A stretch of DNA of 55,258 bases, from assembly GCA_003232715.1 (NCBI GenBank), contig QIJG01000050.1, positions 1 to 55,258 on the forward strand, read 5' to 3'. A program made the translations under genes and the position numbers. The notes under the pieces are model-generated. The model was given only the letters and a program-made list of their open reading frames with translations. It made no database searches and was not told the origin of the DNA. Source of the stretch: Nitrospirota bacterium (GTDB taxonomy: Bacteria; Nitrospirota; Thermodesulfovibrionia; Thermodesulfovibrionales; JdFR-85). Shown one piece after another: positions 30,120 to 30,173 of the stretch; position 1 is the first letter of the stretch; each line of letters begins with the position of its first letter.

Positions 30120-30173
30120 TAAGTTCTTGACCTGTTTTGCTTTTCTTTTGACCTATTTTGCTTTTGGGGAAGG
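30120..30173 (-). promoter_or_regulatory. Copy A of a shared block: two TTGACCTRTYTTG direct repeats 21 bp apart, upstream of the membrane-protein/GRE operon
   Basis: TTGACC at 30127 and 30148. 36 of the first 42 positions are identical (ungapped, hand-aligned) to 53978-54019. A -10-like TATTAT (minus strand, 30099-30104) lies about 20 nt beyond the proximal repeat. The ATG at 29972 is about 125 nt further on. Confidence 0.5.

Follow-up and report, generated by a model that had tools for sequence, protein, structure and literature searches.

We analyzed a 55,258-nt stretch of DNA from an uncultured Nitrospirota bacterium (contig QIJG01000050.1 of assembly GCA_003232715.1; the whole stretch is called the window) in which a short sequence block occurs twice, once upstream of an operon for an extracellular contractile injection system (eCIS, or CIS) and once upstream of an operon for a glycyl radical enzyme (GRE). 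The two blocks appear to be matching promoter/operator modules, and their likely binder is a protein with a receiver domain (REC) and an AraC-type DNA-binding domain, encoded within the window directly upstream of block 2, so that both operons would be switched on together; we put the probability of this reading, which is built on comparative sequence analysis, at roughly three in four. What was directly observed is the repeat with its internal architecture, its conservation, its fixed orientation, the fixed spacing from a -10 element, and the constant association with the regulator gene.

Two matching blocks upstream of two operons

A repeat search of the window returned, as its top-ranking two-copy repeat, a 42-nt direct repeat that pairs positions 30120-30161 with 53978-54019 at 86% identity (36/42). 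When the 42-mer was slid over both strands of the window, copy 2 matched at 36 of 42 positions and the runner-up position at 25, and 100,000 composition-matched shuffles of copy 2 gave a mean of 15.5 +/- 2.6 and a maximum of 28 matches. The unit TTGACCTNTTTTG occurs four times in the window with at most one mismatch, at 30127, 30148, 53985, and 54006, and nowhere else; about 0.39 occurrences per window are expected by chance, and four were reached in 0 of 100 shuffles. The start-to-start spacing of the units is exactly 21 bp in each copy, both copies are closed by GGGAAGG (30167-30173 and 54021-54027), and the copies differ by a 4-nt indel between the second unit and this closing motif. A 41-nt position weight matrix (PWM), trained on 16 sites from other contigs with the window sites left out, scored the two blocks at 56.1 and 55.1 bits, the next site in the window at 15.3 bits, and the best site in shuffled 55-kb sequence at 14.3 bits. 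Chance likeness of T-rich intergenic DNA is excluded by these values (36/42 against a shuffle maximum of 28; 55-56 bits against 14.3).

All relevant genes are on the minus strand, and both blocks lie on that strand, each upstream of an operon start. Block 1 is separated by 97 nt, counted from its edge at 30173, from the stop codon of the eCIS cargo gene (30271-30273), and sits 148-201 nt upstream of the ATG at 29972. An earlier note on this DNA had reported the 36/42 identity in the same orientation, the shared GGGAAGG end, the equal 21-bp spacing of TTGACC repeats in the two copies, and the distances to the cargo stop codon and the next operon, all of which were reproduced here by repeat search, sliding comparison, or recount; its own proviso, that a proper alignment might find the similarity to be no better than T-rich intergenic background, was not borne out. 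Its claim that both copies carry a TATTAT -10-like hexamer at nearly the same offset holds for copy 1, on the minus strand and within TGATATTAT, but not for copy 2, which has TGCTAAACT instead, 1 nt nearer the repeats.

Read on the minus strand, each block consists of two direct half-sites of ~15 bp (consensus GnCrAaATAnGTCAA) with an A-tract in between, followed at a fixed 23-24 nt past the proximal GTCAAG by an extended -10 element (TGnTAnnn). The order is CCTTCCCTGCAAGATAGGTCAAAAAAAAGACAAAATAGGTCAAGAATTTA, N13, TGCTAAACT in block 2 and CCTTCCCCAAAAGCAAAATAGGTCAAAAGAAAAGCAAAACAGGTCAAGAACTTA, N14, TGATATTAT in block 1 (Table 1). Scoring above 30 bits were 34 sites, made up of ~27 distinct family sites and ~7 chance hits that lack TGnTA; the 21-bp half-site spacing is kept in all of the ~27, and TGnTA stands at +23/+24 in nearly all of them. 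Counted from the G of the proximal GTCAAG, TGnTA follows after 24 nt in all GRE-type blocks and after 23 nt in block 2, L003, L006, L016, L067, and L068 (related loci, labeled L with a number, are described below). With the TAnnnT hexamer set as -12 to -7, this distance places GTCAA at -38 to -34 and the half-sites at -69/-55 and -48/-34 for the CIS promoter, and 1 nt farther upstream for the GRE promoter. A promoter scan found no canonical sigma-70 -35/-10 pair at the blocks on either strand, the pattern expected of an activator-dependent promoter. Half-sites of ~15 bp, a 21-bp period, and a proximal site at the predicted -35 region are together the sequence features of a class II operator.

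Table 1. Features of the window and the evidence on which each is placed (positions are those of the whole window).
Feature	Coordinates	Strand	Sequence	Evidence or position
Candidate regulator, 268 aa, REC + AraC/XylS double helix-turn-helix	54222..55028	-		Pfam, PDB matches, family alignment
Block 2, putative CIS-operon operator/promoter module	53978..54027	-	CCTTCCCTGCAAGATAGGTCAAAAAAAAGACAAAATAGGTCAAGAATTTA	PWM 56.1 bits
Block 2 distal half-site	54006..54020	-	TGCAAGATAGGTCAA	about -69 to -55
Block 2 proximal half-site	53985..53999	-	GACAAAATAGGTCAA	about -48 to -34
Predicted extended -10, CIS-operon promoter	53958..53966	-	TGCTAAACT	predicted start near 53951
eCIS operon	30271..53879	-		Pfam hits to core genes
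Block 1, putative GRE-operon operator/promoter module	30120..30173	-	CCTTCCCCAAAAGCAAAATAGGTCAAAAGAAAAGCAAAACAGGTCAAGAACTTA	PWM 55.1 bits
Block 1 distal half-site	30148..30162	-	AGCAAAATAGGTCAA	about -70 to -56 of predicted start
Block 1 proximal half-site	30127..30141	-	AGCAAAACAGGTCAA	about -49 to -35, abuts or overlaps the -35 region
Predicted extended -10, GRE-operon promoter	30099..30107	-	TGATATTAT	predicted start near 30092
GRE operon	23921..29972	-		Pfam

In the mechanism we propose, the regulator would bind each block as a dimer, with one monomer per half-site, and at the -35 region the proximal one would contact RNA polymerase in class II activation, as XylS does at Pm and AraC at araI. 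A kinase or signal would control the regulator through its receiver domain. Block 2 would drive the CIS operon and block 1 the operon for the GRE, membrane proteins, and lytic transglycosylase, and with one regulator at both blocks the two operons would make up one regulon and be co-induced. The predicted parts of this scheme are that the REC-AraC protein binds, that it activates and does not repress, and where transcription starts.

Several other features were considered at the blocks. By eye, neither a sigma-54 signature (GG-N10-GC) nor a sigma-28 signature (TAAA-N15-GCCGATAA) stands at a conserved position past the block, where TGnTA is conserved instead. A third copy that the repeat search proposed at 29991-30020 had no PWM support and is low-complexity sequence of the 5' untranslated region. 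Structured RNA was rejected on fold z-scores of -0.17 for the spacer from cargo gene to block and +1.38 and -0.29 for a conserved stretch after the regulator, and Rfam gave 0 hits in the whole window. Also seen was CCTTCC(C), the minus-strand reading of the plus-strand GGGAAGG, ~10 nt upstream of the distal half-site in both window copies, L003, L070, and L005; in the wider block family this position is reduced to a C/T-rich patch followed by an A-tract. Possible roles for the motif are those of an upstream promoter element and of a weak third contact.

The candidate regulator and the distribution of the block

The regulator's open reading frame (ORF) has 268 codons here, compared with 266 aa in the recorded gene. 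Pfam placed HTH_18 (3.1e-22) and HTH_AraC (2.9e-16) on residues 151-242, the PDB matches were the DNA-binding domains of AraC, XylR, RamA, and MarA, and homologues carry the source annotation 'YesN/AraC family two-component response regulator'. The Response_reg score was 29.7 bits against a Pfam cut-off of 30.2, and the receiver keeps D60, T87, and K111. In the family alignment K111-P112 is invariant and the phospho-acceptor Asp is G or N in some members, making control by phosphorylation uncertain. Conservation in the family is highest in the two helix-turn-helix (HTH) regions, which is consistent with the conserved bipartite half-site. No histidine kinase gene is adjacent to the regulator, the only kinase of the window being CheA (8189-9973). 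The earlier note had supposed that a regulator would lie outside the segment between the two copies, which it took for a possible island, and overlooked this gene, which is in the window directly upstream of copy 2.

Related loci were found through homologues of the regulator and through pattern scans of public collections. A regulator homologue is followed directly by a block in 10 lineages (the window, L003, L005, L006, L061, L031, L041, L067, L068, and L069), at 46-100% protein identity. Three of these loci were picked by protein similarity alone (56%, 46%, and 54% identity); in L067, L068, and L069 a block of 38-54 bits lies immediately past the regulator gene in the same orientation. The order regulator-block-CIS is found in L003 (regulator 82% identical) and L006 (63%), where the intergenic DNA is GC-rich and unalignable and the block is its sole conserved island; the block is likewise the conserved island before the GRE operon of L064. 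In L005 (72%) and L061-63 (68%) the order is regulator-block-GRE operon and the CIS is absent, L064 has the GRE operon with a block and no adjacent regulator, and the more distant GRE operon of L065/66 has no block. The block precedes the CIS operon in three lineages and the GRE operon in five, with orthologues of the window's blocks before the CIS operon in L003 and L006/L019 and before the GRE operon in L005, L055, L061-63, L064, and L070. This distribution, together with the linkage to the regulator, supports the earlier suggestion that one regulator controls both operons.

Pattern scans with GTCAAAANAAANNNNANANNNGTCAAGAA extended the family beyond these neighborhoods. Among species-representative genomes, a collection that excludes the source genome and its close relatives, the pattern matched 14 loci, most of them fortuitously, inside A-rich coding sequence from unrelated taxa; the relevant ones are L016, L019 (of one species with L006), and perhaps L013. 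The three matches among viral contigs are one unrelated sequence throughout. Metagenome contigs yielded 37 loci, ~20 of which share far more than the pattern, namely the flanking GCCGAAATAT, TTTA after GTCAAGAA, and TGCTA at the right offset. The metagenome blocks are always co-oriented with the downstream gene, and their targets include a 1088-aa transglutaminase+NlpC/P60 protein, a Zn phospholipase C, a radical SAM/SPASM enzyme, an aminotransferase, a CARDB protein, a sigma-54 activator, and a WHD+AAA ATPase related to the CIS ATPase. A dispersed element of the REP or MITE type was rejected as an explanation of the block: there are two copies per 55 kb, both are co-oriented with an operon and without an inverted repeat, and elsewhere the block is always on the gene strand.

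Two blocks before successive operons were found in single contigs of L005, L061, L068, and L040. In the CIS-less relatives the second block (L005 16504-16544; L061 10814-10854) follows the GRE activase gene and precedes an operon for proteins of 625 and 614 aa without Pfam domains and a C13 (legumain-like) peptidase. Since in these genomes another block-driven operon comes after the GRE operon, this locus seems as a rule to carry block-driven operons in tandem behind the regulator. In L061 most of the lytic transglycosylase gene has given way to the second-block operon, and what remains of the gene is a 179-nt piece that matches window 23914-24092.

The loci with more divergent regulators have other genes in first place. 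L067 has the order regulator, block, sigma-54 activator, Pvc16_N/CIS; L068 has regulator, block, Pvc16_N, with a second block two genes on; and L069 has regulator, block, a 150-aa gene, a sigma-54 activator, and genes for PG_binding and patatin proteins. A sigma-54 enhancer-binding gene stands first or nearly first after regulator and block in L067 (1019-2382), L031 (471 aa), and L069 (10766-12407). This position, with the CIS next in L067, suggests a two-step cascade in these three lineages, from the REC-AraC protein to the sigma-54 activator to the CIS.

Two observations concern the regulator gene and its downstream edge. Its last ~10 codons and ~100 nt downstream form a stretch (window 54124-54253, minus strand; L005 10790-10917; L055 746-875) that the window and L055 share at ~94% identity and that by eye is alike in L005, the remaining regulator gene being ~72-76% identical. 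The stretch is absent from the closer relative L003, has no Rfam hit and no significant fold, and may be a recombination tract or an unrecognized element. In L055 (VAOY01014234.1), positions 446-875 align with window 55258-54950 and 54253-54124, so that the regulator gene has an internal deletion of ~700 bp that leaves its first ~26 and last ~10 codons, with the block and the GRE operon intact; the contig represents a natural regulator-null variant or else an artefact of assembly.

Alternative explanations

Some points weigh against shared control by the REC-AraC protein. The receiver domain falls below its Pfam cut-off, the Asp is lost in some members, and a histidine kinase is not adjacent, which may count against a phosphorylation-controlled switch. 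A 21-bp direct-repeat period would also fit other regulator families, for instance LytTR, and the whole case is one of sequence comparison, with blocks of the source genome counted within the 55-kb window. No canonical intrinsic terminator was found between the cargo gene and block 1, so that part of GRE-operon expression could be read-through. In a quite unlikely alternative, a different transcription factor encoded elsewhere, of the LytTR type or another response regulator, might bind the shared block, and the REC-AraC gene would then be a passenger or would regulate, for example, the flanking flagellar genes. The spacing by itself does not fix the protein family, the regulator gene has a flagellar/chemotaxis supercluster around it, and many block-bearing contigs have no regulator nearby. 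Yet in 10 lineages the regulator is immediately upstream of a block, at protein identities down to 46% and with three loci picked blind to the DNA, its best-conserved regions are the HTH regions that match a bipartite half-site, and no other DNA-binding protein is consistently linked to the block. In L006, L068, and L069 the regulator is away from flagellar structural genes and the block follows all the same. The L006 regulator adjoins sugar-biosynthesis genes, which may themselves serve flagellin glycosylation. Scarcely credible, in our judgment, is a plus-strand reading in which the TTGACC motifs, a 5/6 match to the -35 consensus TTGACA in block regions whose plus strand is T-rich, are -35 boxes of antisense or outward promoters, or in which the copies are alike by chance. 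The plus strand has no -10 at 16-18 nt from TTGACC, the scan returned nothing promoter-like for either strand, neither copy is followed by a plus-strand gene, and the conserved TGnTA, with its fixed distance, belongs to the minus strand; the shuffle and PWM values given above exclude chance.

The earlier note had also proposed that the copies are direct repeats bracketing a 23.8-kb horizontally acquired CIS island, and part of this proposal stands, since the CIS is variably present at exactly this place. The single-block, CIS-less site that such an island predicts does exist in relatives, as regulator, one block, and GRE operon in L005/L055 and L061-63. In blastn, window 54123..30175 (23.95 kb) corresponds to 55 bp in L005, which makes the CIS a variable segment at exactly this spot; the right junction coincides with the upstream edge of block 1, and the CIS GC content is somewhat above that of the flagellar flank. 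The blocks as att sites or target-site duplications are nevertheless very unlikely. Many other loci carry a block too, ahead of unrelated genes and of GRE operons never next to a CIS, an outcome that the note itself had named as refuting an island. Copy 1 matches the orthologous GRE-type blocks at 40-42 of 43 positions but matches copy 2 at just 36 of 43, and in L003/L070, at ~80% nucleotide identity, the same differentiated pair of a CIS-type and a GRE-type block flanks the CIS. The left junction is 96 nt outside block 2, not at the block, and regulator-block-CIS is present already in the more distant L006 (regulator 63% identical). The CIS GC content of 0.50-0.55 equals that of the GRE operon (0.52-0.53). 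As the note had remarked, no integrase is visible; the ORFs of 30271-53879, all of them CIS structural, ATPase, or cargo genes, include no integrase or transposase, and the window has no tRNA gene. An att-bounded island would have a recombinase inside or beside it and repeats confined to its ends, and neither is the case here.

Loss explains the CIS-less loci more simply than gain. The regulators of L005 and L061 are each other's closest relatives in the family alignment and L006 has the CIS, so a single loss is more parsimonious, and the CIS was probably ancestral at the locus; the L005/L061 clade would have lost it, possibly when the two blocks recombined with each other. As the 55 bp of L005 have no match in either flank of the window segment, the crossover cannot be placed and the junctions do not decide between gain and loss.

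The predicted regulon and known regulatory systems

The gene content of the two operons is that of an Afp/PVC-like particle and of an enzyme module. Pfam hits in the eCIS operon comprise Pvc16_N, sheath, two gp19-type tubes, CIS_tube, a VgrG-like spike, PAAR, gp25, baseplate J, a CIS tape measure, and an AAA ATPase, which together are the core genes of Afp/PVC-like eCIS; DUF5908 was called in L001, a locus identical to the window. The cargo protein has 1351 aa and an Endonuclease_NS_2 domain. Domain searches agree with the earlier description of the operon past block 1, whose products are a pair of multi-pass membrane paralogues of 191 and 190 aa, a PFL2-type GRE, a 153-aa protein, an activase, and a lytic transglycosylase with PG_binding_1+SLT domains. 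The membrane paralogues have 4-5 transmembrane segments and the GRE specificity is unassigned. This module (window 23921-29972; L064 3093-11402; L065 9055-17411) shows repeated linkage to hydrolases that bind peptidoglycan, of the SLT+PG_binding_1 type in the window and L064 and of the GH46+PG_binding_1 type in L065. The whole regulator-CIS-GRE module is embedded in a flagellar/chemotaxis supercluster, with FliL to FlhA, FlhF/G, FliA, and che genes on one side and flagellin, FlaG, FliD, and FliS on the other. The FlhA (FHIPEP) gene is broken into one ORF of 176 aa (17611-18141) and another of 488 aa (16125-17591), through a frameshift, an internal stop codon, or a mistake in assembly, and a 19-bp unit, CTTTTCTGTCACTGCGAGT, is repeated three times in tandem at 4845-4901, between genes for an ABC-transporter ATPase and an HDOD-domain protein.

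Several genes that are block-driven or adjacent to a block are toxin-like, including a transglutaminase+NlpC/P60 protein (L029 8579-11845), a Zn phospholipase C (L037 5892-6920), a patatin (L069 16148-18258), and a caspase-like C14 peptidase (L068 8438-9241). Their products are candidate injection-system effectors of the same regulon. Except in a few insect pathogens, little is known of how eCIS are turned on, and the block offers a specific and testable candidate regulator-operator pair for the eCIS of uncultured Nitrospirota, with a 41-nt matrix that finds predicted regulon members in metagenomes. The predicted regulon ties the particle to an uncharacterized GRE / peptidoglycan-hydrolase operon as well as to toxin-like genes, and so points to candidate effectors and a possible release module. 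A more speculative proposal, which we regard as rather unlikely, is that short REC-AraC proteins are a family of dedicated master switches of a 'contractile-injection regulon' in Nitrospirota and neighboring anaerobic lineages, and that the GRE module serves particle release or lysis of the producer cell under anoxia. If that were true, a single signal would induce the particle together with its toxin-like effectors and the module of GRE, membrane proteins, and peptidoglycan hydrolase; the effectors would include nuclease, transglutaminase/NlpC-P60, phospholipases, and caspase-like peptidases; and the GRE operon would be a functional part of the injection system rather than a metabolic neighbor.

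The closest model for the operator is XylS at the Pm promoter, where two homologous 15-bp direct repeats (box A, N6, box B) are bound, the proximal site overlaps the RNA polymerase site, and the dimer forms from two DNA-bound monomers (PMC5481539). Shared with it are 15-bp direct repeats whose two boxes are about one helical turn apart, the 21-bp period, and a proximal site at -35. Unlike XylS, which recognizes TGCA-N6-GGNTA, has a benzoate-binding domain, and acts on catabolic genes, the system described here, known from sequence, has the recognition pattern GnCrA...GTCAA, a CheY-like receiver as predicted N-terminal domain, and CIS and GRE operons as predicted targets. Half-sites in 21-bp direct repeat, with the promoter-proximal one overlapping -35, are also the arrangement of araI1-araI2 for AraC and of rhaI for RhaS in Escherichia coli. 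The candidate regulator's DNA-binding domain matches AraC and RhaS models and the half-site layout is the same, but here there is an extended -10, no sugar-binding/dimerization domain, and no evidence of a distal looping operator.

In its domain order, a receiver followed by an AraC HTH domain, the protein resembles YesN and XydR, the latter an activator of adjacent gene clusters (PMC3572039). It differs from XydR in length (268 aa against 532 aa), in having no adjacent histidine kinase, and in a receiver that is partly degenerate in the family, and from both YesN and XydR in a predicted regulon that is CIS- and toxin-like rather than for carbohydrate utilization. REC-AraC regulators such as YesN and XydR are thus already known, as are AraC-type direct-repeat operators, and the class II mechanism is an ordinary one. 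A survey of eCIS names only GerE/LuxR-type, BTAD, and RfaH regulators and gives operator sequences for none of them (PMC8213781); a text search of it for regulators found no mention of the REC-AraC type, and a literature search for eCIS together with AraC returned nothing relevant. As with the GerE/LuxR, BTAD, and RfaH/AnfA1 regulators, the gene described here lies beside an eCIS operon and is the presumed switch (PMC8213781). Unlike the known eCIS regulators, it comes with a defined operator that reaches non-CIS operons, and what is new is this predicted regulator-operator pair for the eCIS of uncultured anaerobes.

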